From an uncultured Thermodesulfobacteriota bacterium (GTDB lineage: Bacteria; Desulfobacterota; B13-G15), in the NCBI GenBank assembly GCA_964611295.1, contig CAZSWV010000003.1, positions 6,449 through 70,448 on the forward strand: 64,000 nt of DNA. Direction: 5' to 3'. Under the pieces are notes generated by a model, which had not been told where the DNA came from, searched no databases, and was given only the letters and a program-made list of their open reading frames with translations. Positions 865-61,871 of the stretch are shown in pieces (position 1 is the first letter of the stretch; every line of letters starts with the position of its first letter). The translations under genes and the position numbers were made by a program.

Positions 865-951
<87 letters not shown>

Positions 952-967
952 GTTTTCACCATCCACT

Positions 968-1043: not shown

Positions 1044-1048
1044 CCTTT

Positions 1049-43227: not shown

Positions 43228-43850
43228 CCTTCCTTCCCTATGAGTTTGACAAACCTACAAGGTCCGAGGTCTTCGCGCTTGTACCCATTGCTTAAGGCGG
43301 TTATACGGAAAAGCCTCTCCTGTCCATTTACGATCACAGGTATCACCATCTTGCCGCCTTCTTTGAGCTGGCTCAGCAGAGGCGAAGGAACTTGAGGGGC
43401 TGAAGCGCTAACCACGATCTTATCAAAAGGGGCCTCTTCAGGCCACCCCACGCTCCCATCCCCTACCTTTATCAGGACTTTCTCATATCCAAGGGCATCC
43501 AAAAGCCTCCTAGCCCTTTGTGCCAACTCGGGGATCCTTTCTACAGAAAAGACCCTCTGACAAAGTTCGGCCAAAAGGGCAGTCATATAGCCTGAACCCG
43601 TCCCTATTTCGAGGACCTTATTCCCCTCCTCGAGCTCTAAGGCCTCAAGCATCAAGGCTACAGTATAGGGCTGGGATATGGTTTGACCATATCCTATGGG
43701 CAAGGCCAAATCGAGATATGCTTTATCGGCCAAGGCCTCGGGCACAAACAGATGCCTCGGTACCTTAGACATAGCTTTTATTACCCTCCAATCCTTGATC
43801 CCTCTGGATAGGAGCTGCTCTTGTACCATCCTCCTGAGCGGTCCCCTCAT
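43209..43850 (-). CDS. pcm: protein-L-isoaspartate O-methyltransferase
   Basis: VPRHLFVP; SQPYTVALMLEALEL; VLEIGTGSGY SAM motif. Confidence 0.85.
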   Translation of the reverse strand: MRGPLRRMVQEQLLSRGIKDWRVIKAMSKVPRHLFVPEALADKAYLDLALPIGYGQTISQPYTVALMLEALELEEGNKVLEIGTGSGYMTALLAELCQRVFSVERIPELAQRARRLLDALGYEKVLIKVGDGSVGWPEEAPFDKIVVSASAPQVPSPLLSQLKEGGKMVIPVIVNGQERLFRITALSNGYKREDLGPCRFVKLIGKEGWKDDK

Positions 43851-46408: not shown

Positions 46409-46468
46409 TCTACCACAAACCCCAAGCCTTAAAAAGACGCCTTTTGGAAACAGGCCCCTTATATCACA

Positions 46469-47695
46469 TCAGGGCGATTCTGGAGTTGGCGGGTAACCTG
46501 CCTTACGTAAGGCTTCCTCAAGGGCTTCTTTAGGGACTTGGCCTTCAACCCCCACCTTTTTCTCCTTCAGGTCCACTACCACGCGTTCTACCCCTTCTAA
46601 CTGCTTCAAGGTCTCCTCTATACGGGCCTTACAACCCTCGCAGCTCATAGTAGGTACTCGAAATGTGTATCTCATAACCTCTACCTCCCCTCTACTTGCC
46701 TTGGACAGACGTTCCCTCAAAAAAGCCCCTCCTATAACGAGAACGAGCAAAGCCCCTGTGATCCCTTTTAACCAAGGAGGTAAGAACTCGCCACCCGGTT
46801 TGAAGAACTCCGGAACCCCCTCTGCCCATCCCCATAACAGATTCATAACCCAACCCAAGAGGAAGGCCGAACCTATGACCGAGAGCAAATAAGTGGAAAC
46901 CGCCTTCTTGCCGAGGCGCGAGTACACAAAGCCTACGGTCACAGCGTTTGTGGCAGGGCCGGCTATGAGAAACACCAGGGCAGCCCCTGGGGACATCCCC
47001 TTTGCCATCAAGGCGAAGGCGATGGGGATAGACCCTGTAGCGCATACGTAAAGGGGAACCGATACGCCTAATATCGCTAAGAACTCCAGTAATTGACGTT
47101 CCCTGAGGGGTTCAAAGGCCCCTTGGGGAACAAAGGCACCTAAGGCACCGCCTACAAGGACTCCCAAAACCAGCCATTTCCCTATGTCCTTTGGAAGCTC
47201 TACAAAACCGTAACGGAAAGTCTCTAAAAACCTATTGGCATAAGGCCTTTGGGAAAGGTGGCATTTGGCCCCCTTGTCCCTTTCCTCCGGAAATAGAAAA
47301 GATAAAAGGCCCACGGCAAGCCCAGACAGCATGGAGGCAAGGGGTCTGAAGATGGCAAAGAGAGGACCGAGTAGGGAATAAGTAGCCAAAATGGAATCGA
47401 CACCTGTAGTCGGGGTCGAGGTCATGAAGGCAAGGACCGCCCCTTTGGAGGCCCCTTGTTGGTGCAAGGTGGCAGCAACTGGAATCACCCCACATGAACA
47501 AAGGGGCAAAGGTATTCCAAACAAGGTGGCCTTCCACACCGAAGAAAAGGAAGGGTTACCTAGATGCTTGGTAATGAACCCCTCGCGTAAAAAGGCATGG
47601 ATTATACCCCCCATTAACATCCCTAAAAGGAGGTATGGGCTCATCTCCACCCATAGCCTCGTAGAGCCTTTTACTAGCTCGTAAAGGTAATTCAT
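46469..47695 (-). CDS. permease of the ArsP/DUF318 (PF03773-like) family fused to a C-terminal heavy-metal-associated (HMA) domain
   Basis: PLCSCG permease motif and about 8 TM segments. C-terminal MSCEGCKARIE HMA fold. Confidence 0.6.
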   Translation of the reverse strand: MNYLYELVKGSTRLWVEMSPYLLLGMLMGGIIHAFLREGFITKHLGNPSFSSVWKATLFGIPLPLCSCGVIPVAATLHQQGASKGAVLAFMTSTPTTGVDSILATYSLLGPLFAIFRPLASMLSGLAVGLLSFLFPEERDKGAKCHLSQRPYANRFLETFRYGFVELPKDIGKWLVLGVLVGGALGAFVPQGAFEPLRERQLLEFLAILGVSVPLYVCATGSIPIAFALMAKGMSPGAALVFLIAGPATNAVTVGFVYSRLGKKAVSTYLLSVIGSAFLLGWVMNLLWGWAEGVPEFFKPGGEFLPPWLKGITGALLVLVIGGAFLRERLSKASRGEVEVMRYTFRVPTMSCEGCKARIEETLKQLEGVERVVVDLKEKKVGVEGQVPKEALEEALRKAGYPPTPESP

Positions 47696-48138
47696 CCGGA
47701 AAGGACCTCTACTTCGTCTCCTGCCCTAACTTGCCCACCCCTTATGACCCTGGCAAAGACGCCCTCACGCGGCATTATACAATCACCCACCTGCCGGTAG
47801 ATGGCACACCTCGAGTGGCATTCCTTGCCTATCTGGGTCACCTCCAGAATGACCTCACCTACCCTGAGCCTTGTCCCCGGTTTGAGGTCCGATAACCTTA
47901 TACCCCTGATAGTGAGGTTTTCGGCAAAGTCCCCTGGACCCACCTCAAGCCCAAGGCTTCTCATGTAGAGGATACTCTCTTCGGAAAGGAGGCTCACTTG
48001 TCTCGACCCCCCTTTTTCGGCATGGCCATCTCCTATAAGCCCGTAATCTACTTCAAAGGAACCCACCTCAACAGGCCTCTTCTTCGTCCCCTTTTCGGGG
48101 CTGAGACACACTGCCAATACCTCTCCCTTCAGTTTCAC
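47692..48138 (-). CDS. MOSC domain-containing protein
   Basis: 148 aa. Conserved Cys in GKECHSRCAIY and a MOSC beta-barrel pattern. Confidence 0.75.
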   Translation of the reverse strand: MKLKGEVLAVCLSPEKGTKKRPVEVGSFEVDYGLIGDGHAEKGGSRQVSLLSEESILYMRSLGLEVGPGDFAENLTIRGIRLSDLKPGTRLRVGEVILEVTQIGKECHSRCAIYRQVGDCIMPREGVFARVIRGGQVRAGDEVEVLSG

Positions 48139-48878
48139 GCCTTACCTCCACACACTGGACAAAGGGGGTTCCTTTCTACCTTTACCACCGTAAACTCCAT
48201 GGTCTCGGCATTTATCAGCAACAACCTACCTATAAGCGGTTCCCCTATCCCAGCAAGTACCTTTATGGCTTCTGCAACTTCAAGGCTAGACACTACCACA
48301 GGCGTAAATCCAAAGACAGGGAAGGGTCTTGGGCCTTCTATGTCTTTTGGGAAAACACACCGTAAACAAGGACCTTGTCCGGGCAAGACAGTGGTCACCT
48401 GACCCATAAAACCATAGATCCCCCCGTGTACGAAAGGTATGCCAAGCTCTATACAGGCCTTGTTGAGTACAAAACGCGTAGCCATGTTGTCCATGGCATC
48501 GACCACAAGCTGAGCCCCATTTAAAAGTTCAAAAACGTTCTCCTCTGTTATCCTTTCCTCAAAAGCCTTGAATTGGACCGTAGGGTTTAGCCTCTGTAAT
48601 TTCCTCAAGGCAGATTCTACCTTCATCCTCCCGATGTCCTCGTCCCAGTGCAGGAGCTGGCGGTTGAGGTTTGACAGCTCGACCTTGTCGCAGTCTATTA
48701 TGGTGATCCTCCCCACACCAGCTGCCGCAAGCAACATGGAAGCCGTGGATCCCAACCCTCCCACGCCTGCCACAACCACGTGAGCCCCTTTTAACTTCCT
48801 TTGCCCTTCCTCCCCGAAAGAAGGCCAGAGGATCTGCCTACTGTAGCGCTCAAGGTCATAGGGGGTTAGTTCTACCAT
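48135..48878 (-). CDS. ThiF/MoeB-family E1-like adenylyltransferase
   Basis: YSRQIL; GVGGLGS glycine-rich ATP loop; CLRC...CPVC zinc motif. Confidence 0.8.
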   Translation of the reverse strand: MVELTPYDLERYSRQILWPSFGEEGQRKLKGAHVVVAGVGGLGSTASMLLAAAGVGRITIIDCDKVELSNLNRQLLHWDEDIGRMKVESALRKLQRLNPTVQFKAFEERITEENVFELLNGAQLVVDAMDNMATRFVLNKACIELGIPFVHGGIYGFMGQVTTVLPGQGPCLRCVFPKDIEGPRPFPVFGFTPVVVSSLEVAEAIKVLAGIGEPLIGRLLLINAETMEFTVVKVERNPLCPVCGGKA

Positions 48879-48881
48879 CTC

Positions 48882-49166
48882 CTATGTCTTTTCCCGCTCC
48901 TTTTCAGACAAAAAAGAGCAATAGGCTCTAAAGAGGGCCTCTTTGTAATCCACCTCGTAGTTTTGAGGCACGTAATTCCTCTTGGATACTTCCTCTAAGA
49001 GGGCTTCTTTTACTTCCTCCTCGTCCTTTATGCCCCTTTGCATTACGTTAAGAAAGGCCTCTTCAAGGCCTATAACTCCAACCAATACGCCTTTTATCTG
49101 GAGCATCTTTAAGTCTTCTTGAACAGCCCCCGTACAACAGGTACAGATGGGTTTATCCTTTTCCAT
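48882..49166 (-). CDS. small hypothetical protein with N-terminal CTCC (CxxC) motif, hcp-associated
   Basis: 94 aa, PICTCCTG then an acidic helical tail. Located between hcp and the E1/MOSC genes in the same orientation. Confidence 0.35.
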   Translation of the reverse strand: MEKDKPICTCCTGAVQEDLKMLQIKGVLVGVIGLEEAFLNVMQRGIKDEEEVKEALLEEVSKRNYVPQNYEVDYKEALFRAYCSFLSEKEREKT

Positions 49167-49262
49167 TGCCTCTTGCTATCTTTCATCCTACATCATCTCC
49201 TGACACATTGAAAGATGCCCTCTGCCTCCGCAACTCTCCATAGGCTTCGTAAAGGCCACACG

Positions 49263-50903
49263 TTAACTTTCCCTGGAGAGTGCCTGGGCTAGGTCCTTTA
49301 GAGGGTCTGTCACGGTCCTTATGTCGTAATCCCTCCTTAGAAGTTCAAGGACCTTAGGCGTTAAGAAGGCAGGAAGGCTTGGGCCGATCATTATCCCCTT
49401 TATACCGAGGTAAAGGAGGGTGAGCAGTATGGCCAGGGCCTTTTGCTCATACCAGGAGACGACAAGCGTCAAGGGGAGTTGGTTTACCTCTACACCCAGG
49501 GCATCTGCTAAGGCCTGGGCCACCTTTATGGCAGAGTAGGCGTCGTTGCATTGACCCATATCAAGGATACGGGGAATACCCTCTATCGTGCCTAGGTCCT
49601 CGGCAAAGAAGCGGAACTTCCCGCACGCAAGGGTCAATACCACTGTGTCTTTTGGGGCCCTGAGGACGAACTCTCGGTAATAGTCCCTTTCTTTCTTCCT
49701 GCCATCACATCCGCCTACAAGGAAAAAGTGCCTGATTTTGCCCTCGCGCACCGCATCTAGGACCTTGTCTGCTAACTCCATCACCGCGTTTCTTGCAAAA
49801 CCCACCATGACCTGTCCCTTTTCCTCCTCGGTATCAAACCCGGGTAGCTCAAAGGCCGTCTTTATGACCTCCGAGAAGTCCTCGCCTCTTACGTGTTTCA
49901 CGCCAGGGTAGCCCACAGGACCGCAGGTGAACAGCCTTCCTTTGTAGTCCTCCTTAGGCGGCACAAGGCAGTTAGTAGTCATAAGGATAGGACCAGGGAA
50001 AAGGGGGAACTCCTTCTGTTGGTTCGCCCAAGAGGTACCGTAATGGCCGTATAAGTGGCCGAACTCCTTGAGTTTGGGGTAACCATGGGCAGGAAGCATC
50101 TCACCGTGGGTGTAAACGTAAACGCCCTTGTCTGCTGTCTGACGCAAAAGTAGTTCGAGATCCCTTAGGTCGTGCCCAGAGATCAAAACGGCCTTGCCAG
50201 CCTTATGCCCCAAGGGGACCACCGTAGGCTTCGGATGACCATAAGCAGACGTATTTGCTTCGTCCAGAAGCTCCATAGTCCTCAGATTGACCTTGCCCGC
50301 CTCAAGAAGAAGTCCCAACCAGGAGGCCACATCCACCTTTTGGGGCTCAAGATAAGCGGCAAGTCCTTTGTAAAGGAAGTCATAAATGGCCTGGTCCTCC
50401 TTGCCGAGCCTCTGGGCATGATAGGCATAAGCCGCTATACCCTTAAGCGCGACAAGTAACGTGTAGCTGAGATAGAAGACCTCAGGATCCAAAACCTCTT
50501 TCCTCGTTTCCGGACTAACCCTCTTTGCCTGTTCAAGGAGCGTACCTTCATCTTGAGCCGGTACAAAGTCTACAGCCTCATGCGAGGGCACAGTCCTCGA
50601 TTTCTCTGAAAGCCTCCACTTCAACTCATCCCTATAATCTATGGTTCTCTTGAGGTATTCCCTCATACGTTCCTTGTCGAAATTCACGTTGGTCTTAGTG
50701 GAGAAAAGGGCCTCGCACAAAAAGGCGTTTATCTGATTCAAGTCAATCCCCGTTTCCCTGGCCTCCTGGAGACAAAGGGCCAATCCGCCCAGGACGTATA
50801 CCAGGAGGTCCTGAAGGTAAGCCACTTCTGGGGGTTTCCCACAGACCCCTAATTTAACACACCCTTGTCCCTTCGCCGTCTCTTCGCATTGAAGGCATAA
50901 CAT
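49263..50903 (-). CDS. hcp: hybrid cluster protein (hydroxylamine reductase / NO reductase)
   Basis: MLCLQCEETAKGQGC N-terminal cluster motif and 546 aa length. Confidence 0.85.
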   Translation of the reverse strand: MLCLQCEETAKGQGCVKLGVCGKPPEVAYLQDLLVYVLGGLALCLQEARETGIDLNQINAFLCEALFSTKTNVNFDKERMREYLKRTIDYRDELKWRLSEKSRTVPSHEAVDFVPAQDEGTLLEQAKRVSPETRKEVLDPEVFYLSYTLLVALKGIAAYAYHAQRLGKEDQAIYDFLYKGLAAYLEPQKVDVASWLGLLLEAGKVNLRTMELLDEANTSAYGHPKPTVVPLGHKAGKAVLISGHDLRDLELLLRQTADKGVYVYTHGEMLPAHGYPKLKEFGHLYGHYGTSWANQQKEFPLFPGPILMTTNCLVPPKEDYKGRLFTCGPVGYPGVKHVRGEDFSEVIKTAFELPGFDTEEEKGQVMVGFARNAVMELADKVLDAVREGKIRHFFLVGGCDGRKKERDYYREFVLRAPKDTVVLTLACGKFRFFAEDLGTIEGIPRILDMGQCNDAYSAIKVAQALADALGVEVNQLPLTLVVSWYEQKALAILLTLLYLGIKGIMIGPSLPAFLTPKVLELLRRDYDIRTVTDPLKDLAQALSRES

Positions 50904-50960
50904 CTTTCATACCTCCTTTTGTTTTTTCCTAACTATAACCCATACCCTATTTTGGAAACC

Positions 50961-50974
50961 TTGACTTAGGTCAA
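50961..50974. promoter_or_regulatory. perfect palindrome TTGAC-N4-GTCAA: candidate HcpR/FNR-type box
   Basis: TTGACTTAGGTCAA lies in the 114-bp divergent hcp/hcpR intergenic region. It is 58 bp upstream of the hcp ATG and 43 bp upstream of the hcpR ATG. Confidence 0.4.
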
Positions 50975-51017
50975 AAGCCCCCTTGTCTTGAAAATGGCTT
51001 TTTGATAGGGATGGTGT

Positions 51018-51710
51018 GTGTTTCGGGTATCAAAGGAAAAACTGCGACAGATCCCGCTTTTTTCAGGCCTGAGCGATGAGGACCTTGAGGCCCTTTCCGA
51101 AACTTTTCTCTTTAAATCCTTCAGGCCCAAAGAGGTCATCTTCTATGAAGGGGAGGAAGGGCATGGATTCTTTGTGGTCCTTCGGGGTTTAGTTGAGGTC
51201 TTTAAGCTTTCAAGCGAAGGCAAAAAGCAGATCTTACATATCCTTGGTCCTGGAGAGCCTTTCGGTGAAGCAGCCGTGTTCGAGGGGGGGAAGTTCCCTG
51301 CCCATGCTTTGTCTTTGAGACAAAGCGAAGTCCTTTATTTCCCCAAGGAAAGTTTTTTAAAGCTCGTCAGGGAGAGGCCTGAAATCGCTCTGAGGATGCT
51401 TGCTGTAATGGCCCGTAGGCTTAAGGAGATGGTGTCTCTGGTTGAGGACCTGTCGCTGAAGGAGGTAACAGCACGTCTTGCTAGCTTCCTCTTTTACGCC
51501 TATCAGAGGGAGGGGAAAAAGGACTTACACCTTGAGTTCTCTAAGACCCAACTGGCAGGGCTTTTGGGTACGGTCCCGGAGACCTTGTCCCGCGCCTTGA
51601 AACGTCTAAGCGAAGAGGGCCTAATTTCAGTTGAACCCAAGAGGATCGTGGTCAAGGACCCCTTGGGGTTACTAAAAAGAGGTACGGGAGATCTCGAGGC
51701 GTTTTTTTGA
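51018..51710 (+). CDS. hcpR: Crp/Fnr-family transcriptional regulator, HcpR-like
   Basis: cNMP-binding beta-barrel plus C-terminal HTH (TQLAGLLGTVPETLSRALKRL). Divergent from hcp. Confidence 0.75.
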   Translation: MFRVSKEKLRQIPLFSGLSDEDLEALSETFLFKSFRPKEVIFYEGEEGHGFFVVLRGLVEVFKLSSEGKKQILHILGPGEPFGEAAVFEGGKFPAHALSLRQSEVLYFPKESFLKLVRERPEIALRMLAVMARRLKEMVSLVEDLSLKEVTARLASFLFYAYQREGKKDLHLEFSKTQLAGLLGTVPETLSRALKRLSEEGLISVEPKRIVVKDPLGLLKRGTGDLEAFF

Positions 51711-53197
51711 AGGAGAGGGACCAAAAGGAAAAAATCGGCCTCAAGGGAAAGGAATGGACCTTTTGGGCACTCCTTGGGGGAGTGTCCTTATGGCTAGTCC
51801 TATATTTATATGTAACCCCTTATGACCTTTCACCTGACGAGGCCTATTATTGGACCTGGTCGAAAAGGCTGGCCTGGGGTTATTACAGCAAACCCCCTCT
51901 TGTAGCCCTGATAATTTGGGCGACCACTTCCTTAGGGGGAGACACCCCCTTCTTTGTGAGGCTTGGGGCACCCTTGCTTTGGACCATAACGGCCTTTGCC
52001 CTTTACAGACTCTCACAGGGCCTCCTCGGCCCAAAATCCGCCATTAGGGCCTTTTTGCTAGGGCTTTTCACTCTCTGGACACCTTTAGGGGGATTTCTCA
52101 TGACCATCGACCCGCCTCTTATGGCCTTTTGGGGACTTACGCTCCTTTTCCTCTTCAGGGCCTTACAGGGTAACCGACCTTACTGGTATCTCGGAGGGGT
52201 GACCTTAGGACTTGGGCTCCTTAGCAAATACACCATGGCCCTTCTCCCTTTGTCCTTTTTCCTTTACCTCTTGAGCTATAAATCCCAGAGACCTTGGCTT
52301 AAGCGGAAAGAACCTTACCTGTTCCTCCTAATAGCCTTCATCTTCTTTTTCCCCCATCTCCTATGGGAGTGGAGGCACGGTCTTATCGCCTTTAAACACA
52401 CAGCCTCCTTAGTCTCCAAAAAAGGAGAAGACCTGCGGCATCTTTGGGAGTTCCTGGGAGGACAGGCCCTACTCCTTACACCCTTGACCTTTTTGTTGGT
52501 ACAGCTCGGGTCAGCCTTTGGCCTGAAAAAGGCCCTTTTGGGTGATGAACGATACGGTTTTCTCCTTTTCCCCTATCTTTTCCCCTTTGGAATATGCCTA
52601 CTTTTGAGCCTAAAGGGTCCGTGTTACGCGAATTGGCCAGCCCCAGCTTACTTGAGCGGACTCATAATGGCACAGGCGGCCCTTGAGGACCTGGGACTTC
52701 GCCCAAAGGTGAGGGAGATCCTTTACCGAACAGCCTTAGGGGTCGGTGCCCTCTTTTTGGCCCTCTCTTACAGCCTTGAGGCCTTCAAACCCCTCCTTCC
52801 AAAAGGGGTAAATCCCACCTCCAAGGTCACCGGGTGGAAAGAGCTTGGGGCAGAGGTCATGTCCCTTATGACCTCCTTTGAGAAGGAGCCCTTTTTGCTT
52901 TCTCCAGACAGGAAGATAGCCTCAGAGCTTGCCTTTTACGCCAAGGCCTTCCCCAGGACCTATGCCTTCAACCCCTCGAAAGTCCCTAGTAGCCAATTCG
53001 ACCTATGGGGAGGCCTTGAAGGGGAAAAGGGGGAAAATGCCATCGTAGTCCTCAAGGAGGGCAAGGAACTACCACAAGCCTTACGGGAAGCCTTTGAGAG
53101 TTGTAAGCTCTATAAGGACTTTTACGTCTTCCAAGGGGGTGAAAGGACTGTGGGTTTCCGGATCTTCGTATGTCATAACCTTCAAGGTGACCTGTAG
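51707..53197 (+). CDS. glycosyltransferase family 39 (ArnT/PMT-like) membrane protein
   Basis: Polytopic N-terminal half with DEAYYW motif region (SPDEAYYWTWSKRLAWGYYSKPPL). Confidence 0.65.
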   Translation: MKERDQKEKIGLKGKEWTFWALLGGVSLWLVLYLYVTPYDLSPDEAYYWTWSKRLAWGYYSKPPLVALIIWATTSLGGDTPFFVRLGAPLLWTITAFALYRLSQGLLGPKSAIRAFLLGLFTLWTPLGGFLMTIDPPLMAFWGLTLLFLFRALQGNRPYWYLGGVTLGLGLLSKYTMALLPLSFFLYLLSYKSQRPWLKRKEPYLFLLIAFIFFFPHLLWEWRHGLIAFKHTASLVSKKGEDLRHLWEFLGGQALLLTPLTFLLVQLGSAFGLKKALLGDERYGFLLFPYLFPFGICLLLSLKGPCYANWPAPAYLSGLIMAQAALEDLGLRPKVREILYRTALGVGALFLALSYSLEAFKPLLPKGVNPTSKVTGWKELGAEVMSLMTSFEKEPFLLSPDRKIASELAFYAKAFPRTYAFNPSKVPSSQFDLWGGLEGEKGENAIVVLKEGKELPQALREAFESCKLYKDFYVFQGGERTVGFRIFVCHNLQGDL

Positions 53198-53820
53198 AGA
53201 CCCCTTTTGAGGATGTGTTCTTCTACAGGTGCGGGAACGAGGTATTTTATGGATTTACCTGTCTTTACTAATTCCCTTATCTGGGTGGCAGAGACCTTAA
53301 TGGAGGTAACTGGGATCAAGAACAAAGGGACGCCTTTTTGGGAAAGGTAGAGAGACGGACCATTGGGTTCAAAGCCCAGTTCCTTTAGGAACCCCTGGAG
53401 GTCTTCATCGGTCCTTTTCATCACCACAAAAGGGCACAGCCCCAATAACACGTCCCATTCCTTCCACGTCTTAATGGCCCTGAAGGCGTCTTCTCCAATG
53501 ATGAAGCAAAGTCGCTTGCCGTAAACAAGCAGGAGTTCCCTTATAGTGTCCACGGTGTAGGAAAACCCCTCCCTGTTGAGTTCTACGTCGCTTGCCTCAA
53601 AATAGGGGTTGCCTTCAAGGGCTTTTAGGAGCATATGCCAACGGTCCTCTGCAGGGGCGTGGGCTAATCCGCCTTTGTGGGGCGGACGGGCCGAGAGGAC
53701 AAATAGGACCTTTTTCAACCCTAGGGCTTCCCTCACCTCTTCGACTGCCCTGAGGTGTCCGATGTGAATAGGGTCAAAGGTCCCTCCGAAGACGCCTATC
53801 TCAAGTCCTGATCTGCCCAT
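53182..53820 (-). CDS. nadD: nicotinate-nucleotide adenylyltransferase
   Basis: [14 protein letters not shown] (H/T)xGH motif; SATQIR (ISSTxxR). Confidence 0.8.
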
Positions 53821-55057
53821 CGCCGTAAACGATGTATTTGGTGGTGGTCAGGTCCTCTGCCCCCATAGGACCGAAAGCATGGAGTTTAGTGGTACTTATC
53901 CCTATTTCGGCCCCAAGGCCGAACTGATAACCGTCACTGAAGCGAGTAGAGGCGTTCACCAAGACCGTAGAGGAATCTACCTCCCTTATGAACCTCTGGG
54001 CGTTACGGTAATCAGAGGTGATGATGGCGTCGGTGTGTTTAGAACCGTAACGTAGGATGTGATCGATGGCCTCATCTATGCTGTCTACAACCCTTACTGC
54101 CAAGATAAGGTCAAGGTACTCGGCATACCAATCCTCCTCTGTGGCCTCCTTCGCCCATGGGAGGATCTCCCTTGTCCTCGGACAACCCCTGAGTTCGACC
54201 CCTGCCTCACGGAACTTCTCCCCCATAACGGGTAAGAAGACAGGGGCTATGTCCTTGTGGACCAAAAGGGTCTCCATGGCGTTACAGACACCTGGCCTCT
54301 GCACCTTGGCGTTGAAGCATACTTCAAGAGCCATCTTCAGGTCTGCTGAGGCATCCACGAATATATGGCATACGCCCTTGTAATGCTTTATGACGGGTAT
54401 CCTCGAATTCTCCGTGACAAACCTTATCAACTCTTCACCACCGCGAGGGATTATGAGGTCGATGTAGTCTTCCAGTTTCAACATCTCCCTTACCGCTTCC
54501 CTGTCGGTGAAGGGGACTACTTGGACGGCCTCCTTCGGTATCCCTGAGGCCTCAAGGGCTTCTTGTATGACTTTGGCTATGGCGAGGTTTGAATTTATGG
54601 CCTCTGAGCCCCCACGCAATATAACGGCATTGCCTGCCTTAAGACAGAGGCCTGCTGCATCCGAGGTCACGTTGGGCCTTGATTCATAGATGACCCCAAT
54701 GACCCCTAAGGGGATCCTCATCTTGCCCACCCAAAGCCCGTTCGGCCTCCTCCACATCTTCACCACTTCCCCTACGGGATCGGGCTGTGCAGCTATCTCC
54801 CTCAAGCTCTGAGCCATCCCTTCGATTACCTTCTCTGTGAGCGTCAAGCGGTCAATCATGGCACGCGACAGCCCTTTCCTTTGGGCGTATTCCAAGTCCT
54901 TTTTGTTCTCCTCCATCAGGTAAGTAGCGGCCTTCAACAGCCCCTCAGCCATCTTAAGGAGTGCTTGGTCCTTCACGGCCGAAGAAAGGGTGGCAAGCTT
55001 TGGTGCTACAGCCTTTGCTGCCTTGGCCATCTTTAAGATTTCTTCCCTTAGGTCCAT
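53801..55057 (-). CDS. proA: glutamate-5-semialdehyde dehydrogenase (gamma-glutamyl phosphate reductase)
   Basis: 418 aa with an ALDH-fold ProA pattern. Overlaps nadD by 20 nt. Confidence 0.85.
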
Positions 55058-55128: not shown

Positions 55129-55413
55129 CTAAGGGGCCTCAGGCCTTTGTCGCCGGAGCCGCACCTCTACAAGGTTTTCGGGATCGGGACATTGCACGAC
55201 CACTTCGTCTCCCTCCCACCAAGGCATCGATCCCCCAAATTGCAAGGTCGCAAGGGTGGGGAAGATGGCATGATAGAAGAAACCGCAAAGCCCCCCAGGG
55301 TTGTGACAACTTATTTCGAACTTTTCTCCCACATGATGGCCGGCGCTACAGTTTCCCCTAACGGAAATGACTTCCGCTATGACCTTATATCCTATCCCTG
55401 GATCTCTTGCCAT
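55129..55413 (-). CDS. TIGR04076-family small protein
   Basis: 94 aa. [17 protein letters not shown]...[17 protein letters not shown] matches my recollection of the TIGR04076 Cys/His pattern. Confidence 0.5.
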
Positions 55414-55495
55414 GGCTTCCTCCTTGGTTTAAAGGGATAGCTGCTCTATTATAATAGGGTATTATACAAGGCCTTACATCAGGGGAGGAAAAAGG

Positions 55496-58400
55496 ATGGG
55501 TCGGTTCTTCATAGGTGTGGATATCGGTTCCGTTAGTGCCAACACCGTGGTGATGGACGAAGCCCTTGAGGTGCTCGAAGAACATTACGACAGGATAAAG
55601 GGAAGGCCCCTTGAGGTCGTAAAGGGGAGACTTGAGGAGATCTTGAGCCGAATACCCCTTGAGGAGATCTCCGGCCTTGCCTTCACTGGGAAAGGCAGCA
55701 AGCTTTTGGCTGAGATCCTTGAAGCACCCTTTTACAACGAGGTAATAGCCCAAACCAAAGCCGTGGAACGGTTTTATCCGGAGGCACGCACCATTATAGA
55801 CATCGGGGGTCAGGACTCTAAGTTCATTTTATTAGAACAAGAAGGGGGCAAACTCAGGATAAAGGACTTTGGTATGAACACCCTGTGTGCCGCAGGAACC
55901 GGCAGCTTCTTGGACCAACAGGCGAGCCGTCTCGGGTTGACCATCGAGGAGTTTTCGCTCCTTGCACTGAAGTCCAAGAACCCGCCTCGTATCGCAGGTC
56001 GTTGTAGCGTTTTTGCCAAAAGTGACATGATCCACTTACAACAGATAGCTACTCCGGACTACGACATAGTAGCCGGGCTCTGTTATGCCCTTGCACGTAA
56101 CTTTAAGAGCAACATAGCAAGGGGGGCAGAACTCAGGCCTGTGGTGGTCTTCCAAGGAGGGGTAGCAGCCAATTTGGGCATGCGAAAGGCCCTAAAGGAG
56201 GTCCTTGAGCTTGAGGACCACGAGTTCCTTGTACCTACCCATTTTGCCTCAATGGGGGCAATAGGCGCAGTGCTTTTGGCCCTTGAAGAAGGGGCGATGA
56301 GGGGTCTTGGAGGTCTTAAACCCCTTGAGACCTTCCTCAGCTCTTATAAACAGGAGTACAGCTCCTGGGAACCCCTAAGCCTAAGCGAATCGCACCTTAA
56401 ACCAAAGGCCCATGTTTGGGTCTCAAAACCCGAAGTGGGCAAGAAGATCCCAGCCTACCTCGGTATAGATGTGGGGTCCATATCCACCAACTTGGTGGTG
56501 ATAGACGAACAAGGGAGGGTCCTCGCGAAGCGTTACCTCATGACAGCGGGAAGGCCCTTGGAAGCGGTGCGCCAAGGTTTAAAGGAGATAGGCGAAGAGA
56601 TAGGCCACCTCGTGGAGATAAAAGGGGTGGGGACCACTGGTTCAGGGCGCTACCTCACAGGGGACTTCGTGGGGGCTGATGTGGTGAGGAACGAGATCAC
56701 CGCACAGGCGACAGCTGCCATCCACATAGACCCAGAGGTAGACACCATTTTCGAGATAGGGGGACAGGACTCCAAATACATAAGCATCGACCGCGGGGTG
56801 ATAGTGGACTTTGAGATGAACAAGGTTTGCGCAGCCGGAACCGGCAGTTTCCTTGAGGAACAGGCCGAAAGGCTGGGCCTTGACGTGAAATCCAATTTCC
56901 AGGAATTGGCCCTTAAGGCCCCTGCGCCGGTGAAGATGGGGGACCGTTGTACTGTCTTCATCGAATCAGACCTCATACACCACCAACAGCGCGGGGCAAG
57001 GTTAGACGACCTCGTGGCTGGTCTCTGCTATTCCATCGTGCTGAACTACTTGAACAAGGTAGTTGGTGACAGGAGGATCGGCCAGAAGATCTTCTTCCAA
57101 GGAGGAACCGCCTTCAACAAAGGGGTGGTGGCGGCCTTCGAGAAGGTCTTGGGACGTCCCATTACGGTACCTCCACATCATGAGGTCACTGGAGCGATAG
57201 GGGCTGCCCTTTTGGCCATGAAGGAAAGGACCTGGGAGAAATCCAACTTCAAGGGTTTTGACCTCTCGAACCGCCGCTATGAGATAAACACCTTCGAATG
57301 CAAAGGTTGCCCCAATATGTGCCTGATCAGGAAGGTCACCATTGAAGGCGAGAGGGATCCTCTATATTACGGGAGCCGTTGTGAAAAGTACGATGTGTTG
57401 AGGCGGCGTAAGAAGTCAGAGATACCTGACCTATTCCGTGAAAGGGAGAGGTTGCTTTTGGCCCCCTACCCTGGAGAAGATAGGCTTCCGGAGGAGGCCC
57501 CTCAGGTAGGGATACCAAGGTGTTTGGCCTTCATGGAACTTTTGCCCTTTTTTAAGGCCTTTTTCACAGAACTTGGATTCAAAGTGGTCCTTTCGGACAG
57601 GACTAACAAAGAACTCATACGCCAAGGGGTGGAGGCCGTGGTGGCCGAAACCTGTTTCCCCGTCAAGGTGGGTCACGGCCATGTGTTAAACCTCCTTCAG
57701 AAGGGGCTTAAACGGATCTTTGTCCCGAGCATCGTGGGGATGCCCAAGTTCCACCCAGATATGGAGCACTCGCAAAACTGCCCGTATGTACAATCCTTCC
57801 CCTATGTGATCAGGTCAGCCATTCCCTTTGAGGACTATGGGGTGGAGTTGCTTAGCCCGGTGGTGCCCTTCGGGTGGGGCGAAAAAGAAGTAGAGGAGGC
57901 CCTGATAGAATTCGGATGCTCCCTGGGCAAAAGCCCTTCAGAGGTTAGATGGGCCCTAAGGTGCGCATGGGATTTCTACCAGAGGTTCCTCAAGGCCTGC
58001 AAGGCCAAGGGGCGTGAGGTTTTGGAAGAGCTGAAGGGTTGGGAAAGGGCCATGGTGATAGTGGGAAGGCCTTACAACACCTGTGATCCAGAGGTAAGCC
58101 TTGAGATACCCAAGAAGCTGAGGGAGATGGGCGTTTTGGCAATCCCCATGGACTTTTTGCCTTTGGAAGAAAAGGCGAACAGGGAGGGTGTGAAGGAGAT
58201 GTACTGGCGCTATGGCCAGAGGATCCTGGCCTGTGCCCATTTCATCCGGGAGGACAAGAGGCTATACCCCATTTACATATCCAACTTCGGCTGTGGTCCT
58301 GACTCCTTTATCATCCACTTCTTTAGGGAGATAATGGGCGACAAACCCGCCTTGATCTTAGAGATAGATGAACACAGCGCAGATGCAGGGATTATAACGA

Positions 58401-59707
58401 GGCTTGAGGCCTTTATGGACAGCCTTAAGAACGCCAAACCCAAAGGTTCGGTCTTCCAAAGACGTGGTAGGATAGGGGGTGACCCAGAAAGGGTCATATA
58501 CATACCTTATATGTGCGACCATGCCTTTGCCTTTAAGGCAGCCTTTGAGGCCTGTGGGGTGAAGGCCGAGGTCTTCCCTGAATCTGACCAAGAGACCCTC
58601 TTCTGGGGAAGGAAATACACTTCGGGGAAGGAGTGCCTGCCTTGTGTCTTGACCACTGGTGACATGGTGCGCATTGTGAAAAGCCCAGGGTTTGACCCAA
58701 AGAAAGCGGCCTTTTTCATGCCTTCGGGAAACGGTCCGTGCCGATTCGGCCAATACCATCGCTTTCATAGGAAGGTCCTGGACGAACTGGGCTTTGAGGA
58801 CGTCCCTATCTATTCACCCAATCAGGACGAAACCCTTTACAGGGACCTTGGCATCTTGGGGTCTAAGTTCTCCAGGCTCGGCTGGTGGGCCATAGTGGGG
58901 GTAGATTTACTGCAGAAGAAGCTTCTAGAGACCCGTCCCTATGAGGTGAACCCCGGTGAGGCCGAAAGGACCTATTGGGAGTGTTTGAATGGGTTCTGTG
59001 AGCTCTTACGAAGGGACCCTGACATAGAGGAGGTGGTTCAATACCTCATCTCCTGCAGGAACCGCATGGACGCTATCCCTCTAAAGGACAAAGGGAGCAA
59101 ACCCAAAATAGGGGTAGTTGGGGAGATTTACATTCGGCTTAACCGTTTTGGGAACGAAGACGTCATAAAGAAGATAGAGCAGCTCGGGGGTGAAGCGAGG
59201 CTTGCCCCGTTAACTGAATGGGTGCATTACATAAACAAAATGGCCAAGCGAAGGGCTTCAAAGAGAAAGCACTGGAAAAACCTAATGGGTATCCTCATAA
59301 GGGAGTTTTACCAACACAAGGACGAGAGGAAACTTGCCGAGGCCTTCTATGGTTCTATAGAAGAGCCGCTTGAACCACCGACAGAGTGGATCCTTAACTT
59401 GGCAAGTCCCTATGTCCATGATTCCTTTGAAGGCGAGGCCATTCTAACCATCGGTAAGACCATCGATTACGCCTTGAAGGGGGCCTCGGGGGTAGTTAAC
59501 GTCATGCCCTTCACTTGTATGCCTGGAACCATTACTACGGCTATCTTGAAGCGATACAAGGAGCTAAACGGCAATTTCCCTGTTCTCAACATCTCTTATG
59601 ATGGGCAAGAACAGGGAGACGTCTTGACGCGCCTTGAGGCCTTTATGTATCAAGTGAGGCAGTACCAAGAAAGGCTTAAAGAAAAAGGGCTTCAAGGGGA
59701 ACCATAG
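55496..59707 (+). CDS. giant fusion protein: two tandem BadF/BadG/BcrA/BcrD-type ATPase (acyl-CoA dehydratase activase HgdC-like) domains plus DUF2229/HgdB-like C-terminal domains
   Basis: 1403 aa. FIGVDIGSVSANTVV and YLGIDVGSISTNLVV are sugar-kinase/actin-fold ATPase N-termini. Each domain carries a conserved Cys pair for a bridging 4Fe-4S (NTLCAAGTGSF; NKVCAAGTGSF). A CKGCPNMC linker follows. C-terminal half resembles the dehydratase D-component. Confidence 0.8.
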   Translation: MGRFFIGVDIGSVSANTVVMDEALEVLEEHYDRIKGRPLEVVKGRLEEILSRIPLEEISGLAFTGKGSKLLAEILEAPFYNEVIAQTKAVERFYPEARTIIDIGGQDSKFILLEQEGGKLRIKDFGMNTLCAAGTGSFLDQQASRLGLTIEEFSLLALKSKNPPRIAGRCSVFAKSDMIHLQQIATPDYDIVAGLCYALARNFKSNIARGAELRPVVVFQGGVAANLGMRKALKEVLELEDHEFLVPTHFASMGAIGAVLLALEEGAMRGLGGLKPLETFLSSYKQEYSSWEPLSLSESHLKPKAHVWVSKPEVGKKIPAYLGIDVGSISTNLVVIDEQGRVLAKRYLMTAGRPLEAVRQGLKEIGEEIGHLVEIKGVGTTGSGRYLTGDFVGADVVRNEITAQATAAIHIDPEVDTIFEIGGQDSKYISIDRGVIVDFEMNKVCAAGTGSFLEEQAERLGLDVKSNFQELALKAPAPVKMGDRCTVFIESDLIHHQQRGARLDDLVAGLCYSIVLNYLNKVVGDRRIGQKIFFQGGTAFNKGVVAAFEKVLGRPITVPPHHEVTGAIGAALLAMKERTWEKSNFKGFDLSNRRYEINTFECKGCPNMCLIRKVTIEGERDPLYYGSRCEKYDVLRRRKKSEIPDLFRERERLLLAPYPGEDRLPEEAPQVGIPRCLAFMELLPFFKAFFTELGFKVVLSDRTNKELIRQGVEAVVAETCFPVKVGHGHVLNLLQKGLKRIFVPSIVGMPKFHPDMEHSQNCPYVQSFPYVIRSAIPFEDYGVELLSPVVPFGWGEKEVEEALIEFGCSLGKSPSEVRWALRCAWDFYQRFLKACKAKGREVLEELKGWERAMVIVGRPYNTCDPEVSLEIPKKLREMGVLAIPMDFLPLEEKANREGVKEMYWRYGQRILACAHFIREDKRLYPIYISNFGCGPDSFIIHFFREIMGDKPALILEIDEHSADAGIITRLEAFMDSLKNAKPKGSVFQRRGRIGGDPERVIYIPYMCDHAFAFKAAFEACGVKAEVFPESDQETLFWGRKYTSGKECLPCVLTTGDMVRIVKSPGFDPKKAAFFMPSGNGPCRFGQYHRFHRKVLDELGFEDVPIYSPNQDETLYRDLGILGSKFSRLGWWAIVGVDLLQKKLLETRPYEVNPGEAERTYWECLNGFCELLRRDPDIEEVVQYLISCRNRMDAIPLKDKGSKPKIGVVGEIYIRLNRFGNEDVIKKIEQLGGEARLAPLTEWVHYINKMAKRRASKRKHWKNLMGILIREFYQHKDERKLAEAFYGSIEEPLEPPTEWILNLASPYVHDSFEGEAILTIGKTIDYALKGASGVVNVMPFTCMPGTITTAILKRYKELNGNFPVLNISYDGQEQGDVLTRLEAFMYQVRQYQERLKEKGLQGEP

Positions 59708-60477
59708 CTCTTTACGGGGTTCCTTAAGGTACCTATCCCTTCGATCCGTATTTCTACTACGTCGCCTTCCTTAAGGGGACCTATGCCTGAAGGGGTGCCT
59801 GTTGCGATGACATCTCCAGGCATAAGGGTCATCACCTTTGATACGAAACACAGCAGCTCAAGGGGGCTAAAGACCATCTTCGAGGTACGGCTCGATTGTT
59901 TAAGTTGGCCGTTTACCAGGGTTTCTATCTTCAGGTCCGATGGGTCTATATCGGTGACTATCCATGGTCCTAAAGGGGCAAAGGTGTCAAATCCTTTTGC
60001 CCTTGTCCATTGGCCATCGCGTAGCTGGAGGTCTCGGGCTGTAACGTCGTTGAAACAACAATATCCAAGTACGTATTTGTGGGCTTCTTCTAAACGCACA
60101 TCTCTACAGGGCTTAGCCACCACTAGGGCAAGTTCTCCCTCGTAATCTACCCTTTGAGAATCGGGGGGTAGGAATATAGGTTCATCAGGCCCTATGACGG
60201 CCGAAGGGGGTTTAAGGAATATCACTGGTTCTTTGGGCACCTCTAGTCCTACCTCCTCGGCATGATCCTTGTAGTTCAACCCCACCCCAACTACCTTAGT
60301 GGGTAGGACCGGAGGGAGAAGTTTTACCTCGGATAGTTCGGTTTTGACCCTCAGAGGCCTCATCCCTTTAAATGGATCCCCTTCCTGGAGTTCTATAACT
60401 CCACCTTCAATGACCCCAAAGCAACATCTCCCGTTTCTCAAATAGACCCTGACTATCTTCAACCTCTTCTCCTCCAA
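59692..60477 (-). CDS. fumarylacetoacetate hydrolase (FAH) family protein
   Basis: VGVGLNYKDHAEE, GELALVV, GDVIATGTPSGIG. Confidence 0.8.
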   Translation of the reverse strand: MEEKRLKIVRVYLRNGRCCFGVIEGGVIELQEGDPFKGMRPLRVKTELSEVKLLPPVLPTKVVGVGLNYKDHAEEVGLEVPKEPVIFLKPPSAVIGPDEPIFLPPDSQRVDYEGELALVVAKPCRDVRLEEAHKYVLGYCCFNDVTARDLQLRDGQWTRAKGFDTFAPLGPWIVTDIDPSDLKIETLVNGQLKQSSRTSKMVFSPLELLCFVSKVMTLMPGDVIATGTPSGIGPLKEGDVVEIRIEGIGTLRNPVKSYGSP

Positions 60478-60563: not shown

Positions 60564-61871
60564 TTGGCATCCCAAAGGCAGAAAGAAGCGGTGGAAAAGT
60601 GGATTTTGGCTGAAGACTTCATTTTTAAAGACAATCACGCAAAGAAAAGGTACCAAACATATTTGCAGAGGTTTGTCGACTCGGTCTTTTTGGAGAAACA
60701 ACCTGATAGGGTCCCTGTATTCATAACGGGTACCTTTCTTGTCCCGAACCTTTATGGCTTGAGTCCTTACGAGGCTATGTACGACTACGAGGCTGTGATC
60801 GAAGCCCACATCAGGTTTTTAAGGGATTTTGACCCGGACTATGCCCTTACCCCAACCACCATAGGATCAGGTAAGGTCCTTGAAATCATAGGTTTCAAAC
60901 AGTATAGATGGCCGGGCCATGGGGTTCCTTCGACTTCTGTCTACCAATACGTAGAAAGACCCTATATGGAAGACCACGAATACGAGATCCTTATCAATGA
61001 TCCCTCGGATTTTTGGTTGAGATGTTATCTCCCCAGGGTGTGTGAAGTTTTTGAACCCTTTGCCAAAATACCGCCCTTAACAGACCTATGGGAGATTATC
61101 AACTATACCCCCTTTTTTTCTGCCTTCGGTATAGATGAGGTCCAGAAGGCCTTAAACAAGCTTTCAGAAGCAGGAAAGGAGGCGAAGTCTTGGGTAGAGA
61201 AAGTCAAGTCCTTCTCTTTAGAAGCCAAAGCCTTAGGATATCCTGTGCTAGTTGGCGGGACCACGAAGGCGCCCTTCGATTTAATTGCTGACACGTTGAG
61301 GGGAACCAAAGGTGCTTTAATTGATATGTACAAGAGGCCAGACCTATTACAAAAAGCATTGGAGCGGCTTACTCCCATAGCCATTTTGCAAGGAATAAGA
61401 GGGGCAAGAGCTAGTGGTAATCCTGTGGTATTTATACCCCTTCATAAGGGCAGCGACGAATTTATGTCTGATAGGCAATTTAAGACGTTCTATTGGCCAA
61501 CCTTAAGGACCCTTATCGAGGGACTTGTGGAAGAAGGTTGCATACCTTACGTATTCGCGGAAGGCTCTTTTAACAGTCGTTTGGATTACCTTAAAGAACT
61601 GCCCAAAGCTTCCTGTTTTTGGAGGTTTGAGAGGACAGACATGGCAGAGGCCAAAAAGAAAGTGGGCGATTGGGTCTGTATTTCAGGTAACGTACCCCCT
61701 GCCATACTAATGCATGGCAGTCCCCAAGAAGTGAAGGATTATTGCAAAAGACTTATAGATACCTGCGCAGCTGGTGGTGGCTTTATTCTATCCCCCGCTT
61801 CAACTCTTGACGAAGCCAGGCCAGAAAACATAAAGGCTATGATTGAAATATGCAGGGAATATAAAGGTTAG
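60564..61871 (+). CDS. uroporphyrinogen decarboxylase (URO-D) family protein (MtaA/CmuA-like methyltransferase-type)
   Basis: TTG start with AAGGGGG RBS. C-terminal GGGFILSPASTLDEARPENIKAMIE matches the URO-D family C-terminus. At 435 aa it is longer than hemE. Confidence 0.5.
   Translation: MASQRQKEAVEKWILAEDFIFKDNHAKKRYQTYLQRFVDSVFLEKQPDRVPVFITGTFLVPNLYGLSPYEAMYDYEAVIEAHIRFLRDFDPDYALTPTTIGSGKVLEIIGFKQYRWPGHGVPSTSVYQYVERPYMEDHEYEILINDPSDFWLRCYLPRVCEVFEPFAKIPPLTDLWEIINYTPFFSAFGIDEVQKALNKLSEAGKEAKSWVEKVKSFSLEAKALGYPVLVGGTTKAPFDLIADTLRGTKGALIDMYKRPDLLQKALERLTPIAILQGIRGARASGNPVVFIPLHKGSDEFMSDRQFKTFYWPTLRTLIEGLVEEGCIPYVFAEGSFNSRLDYLKELPKASCFWRFERTDMAEAKKKVGDWVCISGNVPPAILMHGSPQEVKDYCKRLIDTCAAGGGFILSPASTLDEARPENIKAMIEICREYKG

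Follow-up and report, generated by a model that had tools for sequence, protein, structure and literature searches.

The open reading frame at positions 55,496-59,707 (plus strand) of the stretch of 64,000 nucleotides analysed here (the window) most probably encodes a stand-alone, self-activating member of the PlsA/PlsR-Ger group within the BCR/HAD radical-enzyme superfamily, and the TIGR04076 gene beside it appears to be unrelated to its function; judged from the sequences, we assign this reading a probability of roughly 0.78. A fusion of this kind is already known, as it is found in a characterised anaerobic family that converts ester bonds of membrane lipids into ether bonds. The fusion was likened to validated members of this family (AGL49404, SHJ90043, Q8XL48/Q8XL47 and Q835P9) by architecture, size, overlap of taxa and published homology criteria. 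The sequence-only reading had considered this type of fusion to be functionally uncharacterised, which does not hold, since the architecture is that of the published Ger and PlsA/PlsR enzymes. It had also combined the fusion and its small neighbour into a two-component system. This proposal dissolves on comparison with other genomes, so that no new question is opened by it.

The gene starts with ATG, and its product of 1403 amino acids (157.8 kDa), a candidate ether-lipid synthase by its Pfam and NCBIfam domains and the architecture published for Ger and PlsA, is arranged in the order Act1-Act2-Cys linker-Red1-Red2. Act1, the first ATPase domain of the HgdC/BcrAD type (approximately residues 1-265; 55,496-56,290, plus strand), was delimited by alignment to PDB sequences and by the motifs DxGS, GGxDSK and QGGVA. 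It aligns with HadI (4eht, E = 9e-30) and also with MbdQ, and its cluster cysteines C131 and C170 correspond to C127 and C166 of HgdC (1hux) and to the equivalent cysteines of HadI. Act2, the second ATPase domain (approximately residues 321-580; 56,456-57,235, plus strand), aligns with HgdC with an E-value of 2e-34, and here C445 falls on HgdC C127 and C485 on HgdC C166. All four cysteines are kept in at least 95% of 81 aligned orthologues. Pfam recognises two copies of PF01869 (BcrAD_BadFG; best stretch 322-574, E = 3e-87), while NCBIfam returns TIGR00241 and, on the first ATPase domain (residues 7-260), the model for benzoyl-CoA reductase D. DCCP-R (7yyl_E) matches the ATPase domains with E-values of 1e-19 to 1e-30. 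The presence of two complete HgdC-type ATPase domains with their pairs of cluster cysteines, which had been claimed before, is thus borne out by Pfam, by the alignments to HgdC and HadI and by conservation.

The activation domains are followed by the cysteine motif C602-x2-C605-x3-C609...C629 (57,299-57,382, plus strand). Each of these four residues is conserved in 96-98% of the 81 orthologues, and the CxxCxxxC linker noticed in the sequence-only reading is therefore confirmed at a conservation of at least 96%. The motif probably provides an additional site for a metal or an Fe-S cluster; the structural model has low confidence in this region (pLDDT about 50).

The C-terminal part consists of two related halves. 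Red1 (approximately residues 671-1000; 57,506-58,495, plus strand), assigned by Pfam and by the conservation of its cysteines C720, C762 and C933, carries DUF2229 (PF09989) at residues 671-887 directly after the activation domains (E = 2e-70 to 7e-66) and, at its C-terminal end, a weak match to HGD-D (PF06050, E = 0.01). Red2 (approximately residues 1001-1403; 58,496-59,704, plus strand) is the PlsR-equivalent and a second DUF2229-like/HGD-D-like half, which was recognised by weak Pfam matches, hhalign and Foldseek and contains the conserved cysteines C1047, C1082 and C1341. The C-terminal matches of Red2 to PF09989 (E = 1e-4) and PF06050 (E = 0.004), both within residues 991-1403, all lie below the Pfam gathering scores, as they do in the published architectures; PF06050 reaches 15.8-17.2 bits in the fusion versus a cut-off of 28.4. 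Red1 and Red2 are homologous to each other (hhalign probability 90%, E = 1.5e-6), with the three cysteines of each half in register. Altogether, 15 cysteines of the fusion are conserved in at least 95% of the 81 orthologues, which come from many phyla.

The structural model of the Red1-Red2 part (pLDDT 79, pTM 0.79) gave one significant PDB match in Foldseek, namely DCCP from the complex with its ATPase reductase (7yzm_A; E = 6.6e-4, probability 1.00), with a low TM-score of 0.24/0.40 and an identity of 13%. The full-length alignment profile, compared to the PDB sequences, retrieved nothing beyond activases. The cluster of DCCP has six cysteine ligands, and by analogy the six conserved cysteines of Red1 and Red2 would be compatible with two [4Fe-4S] clusters or with a double cubane. 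Since the HGD-D matches are weak (E = 0.004-0.01) and the only significant structural match is DCCP, a protein of the BCR/HAD superfamily, the former description of the C-terminus as HgdB/D-like is correct at the superfamily level. Likewise, the view that an activator and a dehydratase- or reductase-like partner are joined in one polypeptide stands, based on the Pfam domains, the homology of Red1 and Red2 and the activase alignments.

Taken separately, Act1 and Act2 can each be aligned to HadI, HgdC and MbdQ with E-values between 1e-27 and 1e-34, and the source annotations of the fusion read 'CoA-substrate-specific enzyme activase' or 'acyl-CoA dehydratase activase'. Both points would suit a self-activating 2-hydroxyacyl-CoA dehydratase or an enzyme of the aryl-CoA reductase type, acting on a CoA thioester in the fermentation of amino acids or aromatic compounds. 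However, the database names stem from the activase domain only, the PF06050 match is faint, as described above, and the Red module has no sequence-level match to the HadBC, HgdAB or BcrBC chains in the PDB. Moreover, no CoA-transferase, CoA-ligase, acyl-CoA dehydrogenase or fermentation operon was found around the fusion or in the best 80 other loci, and the CoA-transferase or CoA-ligase partner that had been suggested for the neighbourhood is therefore missing. We thus regard a CoA thioester as substrate of the fusion as hardly credible. The lack of CoA-handling neighbours rather fits a phospholipid than an acyl-CoA as substrate.

Homologues of the fusion are abundant. There are more than 8000, the best 120 clusters all share an identity of 64% or more across the entire protein, and the family comprises 1112 clusters at 50% identity (E ≤ 1e-30). 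Among the database proteins, the Red module mostly occurs in chains of about 1400 amino acids, where it is fused at the same place. The best 80 genome matches are full-length collinear orthologues in species genomes of many phyla; these loci are from MAGs with the exception of one complete genome of Ca. Brocadia, and T. maritima, D. alkenivorans and C. perfringens are absent from them. They include the anammox genera Brocadia and Scalindua (49-50% identity) as well as many Thermodesulfobacteriota (55-65% identity) and Deltaproteobacteria. The identical fusion protein is also present on two independent assemblies. This, together with the collinear orthologues in the best 80 genomes, corroborates the earlier view that the fusion is neither an assembly artefact nor a split of two genes. 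No gene family recurs as a neighbour in more than nine of the best 80 orthologue loci, and the fusion behaves as a stand-alone gene with no conserved neighbour. Rfam returned three tRNAs only.

If the fusion works like HgdC/HadI and DCCP-R and as has been proposed for PlsA and Ger, it would be sensitive to oxygen and would act on membrane glycerophospholipids, reducing their sn-1 acyl ester, and possibly also the one at sn-2, to an ether. The tandem ATPase domains might form an intramolecular pseudo-dimer with one bridging [4Fe-4S] cluster on C131, C170, C445 and C485. Powered by ATP hydrolysis, an electron of low potential would then pass, perhaps by way of the CxxCxxxC...C site, to the Red1/Red2 module, which is pseudo-symmetric and to which each half would contribute its three conserved cysteines (C720/C762/C933 and C1047/C1082/C1341). 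Two one-electron reductions of the ester carbonyl, protonation and dehydration would lead to a vinyl ether, the product of the PlsA type, and in enzymes of the Ger type the final product would be a saturated alkyl ether.

The Ger proteins of T. maritima and D. alkenivorans possess a BBD+H/D architecture, and a single Ger gene leads to 1-O-alkyl glycerols in E. coli under anoxic conditions only (PMC13159169). Ger alone also yields diethers (PMC11150832). Homologues described as 'modified plsA' have been reported for Thermodesulfobacterium geofontis, D. alkenivorans and Ca. Kuenenia (PMC8788747). According to PMC13274423, the primary sequence does not yet allow Ger to be told from PlsA, and a diagnostic signature does not exist so far; the 'BB' forms in Thermotogota and Thermodesulfobacteriota have been linked to saturated ethers in the same work. 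For the fusion, a saturated alkyl ether would by analogy be more likely than a vinyl ether, because it possesses two activation domains and belongs to an anaerobe related to Thermodesulfobacteriota.

It is also conceivable, although unlikely, that the fusion is a paralogue, Ger2-like or other, with a different substrate or lipid modification, for instance one that is specific for sn-2 or for another acyl ester; it would then not be functionally equivalent to the validated Ger or PlsA. The family, with its 1112 clusters, is very large and old, and some genomes contain several PlsA-like homologues, the roles of which are unclear (PMC13274423). In addition, Ger2, a close paralogue of 153 kDa from D. 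alkenivorans, does not produce ether lipids in E. coli despite its high similarity to Ger (PMC11150832). In the fusion, however, the cluster cysteines and the nucleotide-binding motifs are all intact and conserved, no genes for an alternative substrate are located nearby, and the gene is highly conserved, single-copy-like and stand-alone across those anaerobic phyla which are reported to have Ger homologues. An ether-lipid synthase of the PlsA/PlsR-Ger type thus remains the preferred reading.

The small gene (55,129-55,413, minus strand, ATG start) encodes a protein of 94 amino acids and 10.4 kDa with four cysteines and four histidines. Its assignment to the TIGR04076 family, which had been made before, is confirmed by NCBIfam (57.8 bits versus a cut-off of 33; residues 9-89 of 94), and its length is typical of the family (about 90 amino acids). 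Its homologues form 85 clusters with 58-85% identity, and in their alignment C22, H26, C36 and C43 are invariant, while the conservation of H48 and C75 reaches 90% or more. The AF2 model is of moderate confidence (pLDDT 77.6) and has no fold match in the PDB at E < 1. A weak PDB sequence match to acylphosphatase (E = 0.39) drew attention because seven of the best 80 orthologue loci contain an acylphosphatase gene in the same divergent position; since the fold search gave no support, the resemblance was dismissed as coincidence. The GC content of the small gene is 0.54 versus about 0.52 around it, and its base composition gives no sign of a recent foreign origin.

The ORF calls agree with the former description of the two genes as divergent and 82 bp apart. 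By the ORF bounds and the promoter consensus, the spacer (55,414-55,495) contains an RBS for each gene and, at 55,447-55,455, the sequence TATTATAAT, which is part of a promoter-like site on the plus strand (TTTAAA-16-TATAAT, 55,428-55,455). With ten of 12 positions matching the consensus, this is one weak consensus match of a kind expected by chance about three times per 5 kb; the motif is kept in the relative with a 94% identical fusion (locus L090). Downstream of the small gene and in the same direction lie proA (53,801-55,057, minus strand; NCBIfam, 637 bits) and nadD (53,182-53,820, minus strand; NCBIfam, 181 bits). No terminator-like site was found in the gap of 71 nt between the small gene and proA, and the small gene is possibly co-transcribed with proA and nadD.

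From this arrangement, one could assume that the fusion and the TIGR04076 protein constitute a dedicated two-component radical system, which is co-regulated from the shared divergent region of 82 bp. The divergent adjacency is indeed not unique to the window, since it also occurs in L090 and in a relative in which the small protein is 85% identical (locus L100), the invariant cysteines and histidines of the small protein suggest a metal or redox site, and the inactivity of Ger2 in E. coli has been partly ascribed to a possibly missing cofactor (PMC11150832). Yet the pairing is found in these relatives only. The flank upstream of the fusion spans 500 nt or more in 73 of the best 80 orthologue loci and 3 kb or more in 53 of them, and not a single one of the 80 has a TIGR04076 gene near the fusion, even with E-values up to 50 and filters switched off. 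Vice versa, four TIGR04076 homologues from outside the clade (61-73% identity) reside in four unrelated contexts, none of which includes an activase. In the 80% identical relatives, the synteny PMT_2-nadD-proA-fusion is kept but the small gene is absent, and the spacer between proA and the fusion, 110-113 nt in length, contains no remnant of it. The 85 clusters of the TIGR04076 subfamily also stand against more than 8000 homologues of the fusion, and Ger and PlsA are active in E. coli as single genes, without a TIGR04076 gene being supplied. A two-component system of this kind is hence highly improbable. As judged from these loci, the TIGR04076 gene is a lineage-specific and unrelated neighbour, which appears to have been inserted between proA and the fusion gene in a genus-level lineage. 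There is a very small chance that the TIGR04076 protein has been recruited in this thermophile-like lineage as an accessory to the ether-lipid synthase, be it as a small metal or redox protein donating electrons to the activase cluster, as a protector or as a regulator. If so, it would resemble the 'missing cofactor' by which the inactivity of Ger2 of D. alkenivorans has been explained in part, and this would be the first function for the TIGR04076 family.

The 'lipid divide' that separates Bacteria from Archaea is made less sharp by ether bonds in bacterial membranes, which are also the basis of widely used sediment biomarkers. An intact gene of the Ger/PlsA type in an anaerobe known from metagenomes predicts the production of ether lipids. 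This can also help in annotation, as proteins of about 1400 amino acids that have this architecture and bear the name 'CoA activase' or 'acyl-CoA dehydratase activase' are better regarded as candidates for ether-lipid synthases.

Among the known systems, Ger (Tmari_0479/AGL49404 of T. maritima and SHJ90043 of D. alkenivorans) is, like the fusion, a single polypeptide of about 1400 amino acids, with 159 kDa for the D. alkenivorans enzyme (PMC11150832) versus 157.8 kDa here. Both share two BcrAD_BadFG domains, DUF2229 and small C-terminal D/H fragments, and both are encoded by a stand-alone gene in the setting of a strict anaerobe. The phyla with reported Ger homologues, namely Thermodesulfobacteria, Deltaproteobacteria, Nitrospirae and the PVC group, are those of the orthologue set of the fusion. 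PlsA/PlsR of C. perfringens (CPE1194/CPE1195) and the fused PlsA of E. faecalis, L. cremoris and B. longum have the arrangement Act1-Act2-Red1-Red2 and the same cluster cysteines as the fusion, and the fused plsA genes have a length of 4248-4311 bp (PMC12838417) versus 4212 bp for the fusion gene. The boundary between Red1 and Red2 near residue 1000 would correspond to the plsA/plsR split, and the matches in the plsA portion carry BB+D. With PlsA, the reaction stops at the vinyl ether, and this enzyme is known mainly from Firmicutes and Actinobacteria.

HgdAB/HgdC and HadBC/HadI possess ATPase domains that are homologous to those of the fusion, with the same two cluster-ligand cysteines, and a pseudo-symmetric catalytic part made up of two halves with three cysteines each. 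They differ from the fusion, in which two copies of the activator follow each other and are joined to the catalytic part, the similarity to HGD-D is faint, and CoA-transferase or fermentation genes are not located nearby. Their published substrate is a 2-hydroxyacyl-CoA, in contrast to the phospholipid ester of PlsA/PlsR and Ger. DCCP (7yyl/7yzm), finally, is a protein of about 420 amino acids that is separate from its reductase DCCP-R, whereas in the fusion the activator and the catalytic part share one chain.

The 1403-aa fusion protein (55496..59707, + strand, ATG start, 4212 bp) is probably (about 0.78) an ether-lipid synthase of the family of glycerol ester reductase (Ger) and anaerobic plasmalogen synthase (PlsA/PlsR), with an unrelated neighbour, the divergent TIGR04076 gene (55129..55413, - strand, ATG start, 94 aa). 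The sequence-only reading had placed both open reading frames, and the 82 bp between them, correctly. A Shine-Dalgarno-like sequence precedes each gene, and the spacer contains TATTATAAT at 55447-55455, part of a promoter-like TTTAAA-16-TATAAT on the + strand (55428-55455), a single consensus match of a kind expected by chance about three times per 5 kb scanned. The fusion gene and a convergent FAA-hydrolase-family gene (59692-60477, - strand) overlap at their 3' ends by 16 nt (59692-59707), and therefore there is no room for separate terminators. An assembly artefact was considered and rejected, since the identical protein occurs in two independent assemblies; collinear full-length orthologues in at least 80 species genomes also argue against it.

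The fusion possesses two BcrAD_BadFG domains (PF01869) and a DUF2229 domain (PF09989) according to Pfam, and matches TIGR00241 of NCBIfam. Each ATPase domain (Act1, Act2) aligns over its full length with HadI (4eht), HgdC (1hux), MbdQ/MbdP (9gai) and DCCP-R (7yyl_E), with E-values of 1e-18 to 1e-34, and both carry the phosphate-binding and adenosine motifs. C445 and C485 fall on C127 and C166 of HgdC, the ligands of its bridging [4Fe-4S] cluster, and C131 and C170 on the equivalent positions of HadI. The two complete activase domains with their cysteine pairs, as read from the DNA before, are thus confirmed. Fifteen cysteines are at least 95% conserved among 81 orthologues, which come from Thermodesulfobacteriota, Nitrospirota, Planctomycetota (anammox bacteria among them), Zixibacteria, Armatimonadota and Chloroflexota. 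Five belong to the ATPase domains (C131, C170, C196, C445, C485), four to the linker (C602, C605, C609, C629) and three to each C-terminal half (C720, C762 and C933 to the first, Red1; C1047, C1082 and C1341 to the second, Red2).

The last 820 residues consist of an internal duplication: both halves begin like DUF2229 and end with a faint resemblance to HGD-D. Profile-profile comparison of Red1 and Red2 (Prob 90%, E 1.5e-6) pairs C720 with C1047, C762 with C1082 and C933 with C1341. When residues 581-1403 were modelled with AlphaFold2 (pLDDT 79.4, pTM 0.79), the one significant PDB match of the model was 7yzm_A, double-cubane cluster protein DCCP bound to an ATPase reductase (E 6.6e-4, prob 1.00, TM 0.24/0.40). 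The previously suggested HgdB/D-like nature of the C-terminal domains therefore holds at the superfamily level.

Cofactors, electron path, substrate and product would, we infer, be as follows. Act1 and Act2 would pair within one chain as two HgdC subunits do in their homodimer, sharing a single bridging [4Fe-4S] cluster. Hydrolysis of ATP would lower the potential of this cluster and drive an electron into Red1/Red2, possibly through the four-cysteine site of the linker. The two three-cysteine sites there would bind two [4Fe-4S] clusters in the manner of HAD enzymes, or else a double cubane like that of DCCP. Reduction and dehydration of the ester carbonyl would yield a vinyl ether; with Ger-type enzymes the end product would be a saturated ether.

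The sequence-only reading had proposed that the fusion and the TIGR04076 protein form a two-component system. The small gene is real and conserved (57.8 bits against an NCBIfam cutoff of 33, which upholds its assignment; 85 homologous clusters, 58-85% identical), and the arrangement recurs in two close relatives, L090, whose fusion is 94% identical, and L100, whose small protein is 85% identical. However, preferential adjacency, whose absence was to count as refutation in that reading, was not found: an HMM of the small-protein subfamily, searched against every stop-to-stop ORF of 45 aa or longer in the best 80 fusion orthologue loci (upstream flank of at least 500 nt in 73/80, at least 3 kb in 53/80), gave no match at E < 1e-3, and 0.36 as the best E-value with filters off. 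Four small-protein homologues outside the clade lie in four differing contexts, none with an activase gene: beside spoIID and an MFS transporter (70% identity), beside an M23 peptidase and a response regulator (61%), on a Bathyarchaeia contig (67%), and beside thiD and thiC (73%). An 80% identical fusion, present on five or more contigs (the length of one being 1.6 Mb), keeps the order PMT_2-nadD-proA-fusion, with a spacer of 110-113 nt and no remnant of the small gene; a 71% identical relative has a wholly different gene context. The subfamily counts 85 clusters against more than 8000 for the fusion, although short queries are less sensitive in the tool used. Since the forward, reverse and close-relative comparisons show no wider pairing, the adjacency is an accidental feature of gene order at the level of a genus, an insertion upstream of proA being its simplest explanation, and a two-component system is very improbable. 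Transcription of the small gene together with proA-nadD is possible, since the 71-nt gap to proA lacks any terminator-like site. C22, H26, C36 and C43 are invariant in the small protein, and H48 and C75 nearly so; its model (pLDDT 77.6) matched no solved fold. That it acts in metal binding or redox chemistry is conjecture, and one paper conjectures likewise for a TIGR04076 copy adjoining a glycyl-radical enzyme cluster.

The flanking genes are housekeeping and metabolic ones, none evidently connected with the fusion. They comprise hcp and, divergent from it, a crp/fnr regulator; a PMT_2 glycosyltransferase; nadD and proA; a hydrolase of the FAA family; a URO-D/MtaA-like protein; and TRAP transporter genes. 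mutS, a sigma-70 factor, EF-G, birA and molybdopterin oxidoreductases lie elsewhere in the window. No neighbour family recurs in more than nine of the best 80 orthologue loci, which fits an enzyme that acts alone on membrane phospholipids. The commonest neighbour (9/80 of loci L010-L089; for example L031, 7574-8524) is a radical-SAM-like protein of 317 aa with a CxxxCxxC motif, encoded some 160 nt upstream of the fusion and on its strand. An acylphosphatase of 93 aa lies divergently in 7/80 (for example L013, 1552-1830); both are too infrequent to suggest a partnership.

The hcp gene (hybrid-cluster protein/hydroxylamine reductase, 750 bits) and its divergent Crp/Fnr-family regulator (49263-51710) resemble the HcpR-hcp nitrosative-stress pair. 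In the 80% relatives (L091-L093) mutS lies directly beside the PMT_2 gene; in the window (43847-53197) a block of about 5 kb (ArsP_1+HMA permease, ThiF, hcp, crp/fnr) splits them. Together with the TIGR04076 insertion, this block shows that genes are being rearranged locally in this lineage. Pfam matches the 435-aa URO-D/MtaA-like protein (60564-61871, + strand) at residues 214-433 only, so that an N-terminal extension of some 210 residues has no domain assigned to it; in L090 the gene is apparently broken into two ORFs (191 and 142 aa). A 496-aa ORF (37028-38518, + strand) has no Pfam match at E ≤ 1e-5, and three tRNA genes cluster at 866-1124 (- strand).

Database names of the homologues ('CoA activase', 'acyl-CoA dehydratase activase') would point to a CoA-thioester enzyme; they reflect the N-terminal domains alone. 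The window holds one 3-hydroxyacyl-CoA dehydrogenase, about 35 kb away, and the neighbour check suggested earlier found no CoA-transferase or CoA-ligase gene accompanying the fusion across the window, so that such a function is hardly credible. A search with the Red1-Red2 module alone finds 1112 clusters at the 50% identity level with E ≤ 1e-30; the best 150 of these are mostly proteins of 1340-1480 aa with the module likewise C-terminal. The family is therefore large and old, and its function is already assigned.

Ger consists of two PF01869 domains, PF09989 and small C-terminal PF09989/PF06050 fragments (PMC13159169), which is the layout of the fusion. Such proteins had been called functionally uncharacterised; yet Ger from T. 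maritima (Tmari_0479) or D. alkenivorans (SHJ90043) leads to 1-O-alkyl glycerols in E. coli, under anoxic conditions only (PMC13159169), and the D. alkenivorans enzyme alone also to diethers (PMC11150832). [quoted passage not shown] Homologues of Ger or modified PlsA are reported from Thermodesulfobacterium geofontis, D. alkenivorans and Ca. Kuenenia (PMC8788747) and, more widely, from Thermodesulfobacteria, Deltaproteobacteria, Nitrospirae and the PVC group (PMC13159169, PMC8788747); full-length orthologues of the fusion (46-65% identical) occur in these groups, including Ca. Brocadia and Ca. Scalindua. That the fusion is instead a paralogue with another function is unlikely. D. alkenivorans also possesses a close paralogue of Ger, Ger2 (153 kDa), which is inactive (PMC11150832). 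Membership in the Ger/PlsA family is suggested by architecture, size, taxon overlap and the loose homology criteria of the papers, and according to a published view sequence cannot yet separate Ger from PlsA (PMC13274423). Ger is a 'modified' form of C. perfringens PlsA/PlsR, an enzyme that E. faecalis and L. cremoris encode as a single fused gene with the order Act1-Act2-Red1-Red2 (PMC12838417). In size, the fusion (157.8 kDa, with no transmembrane-like segment) compares with 159 kDa for D. alkenivorans Ger (PMC11150832), and its gene of 4212 bp with 4248-4311 bp for these fused PlsA genes (PMC12838417).
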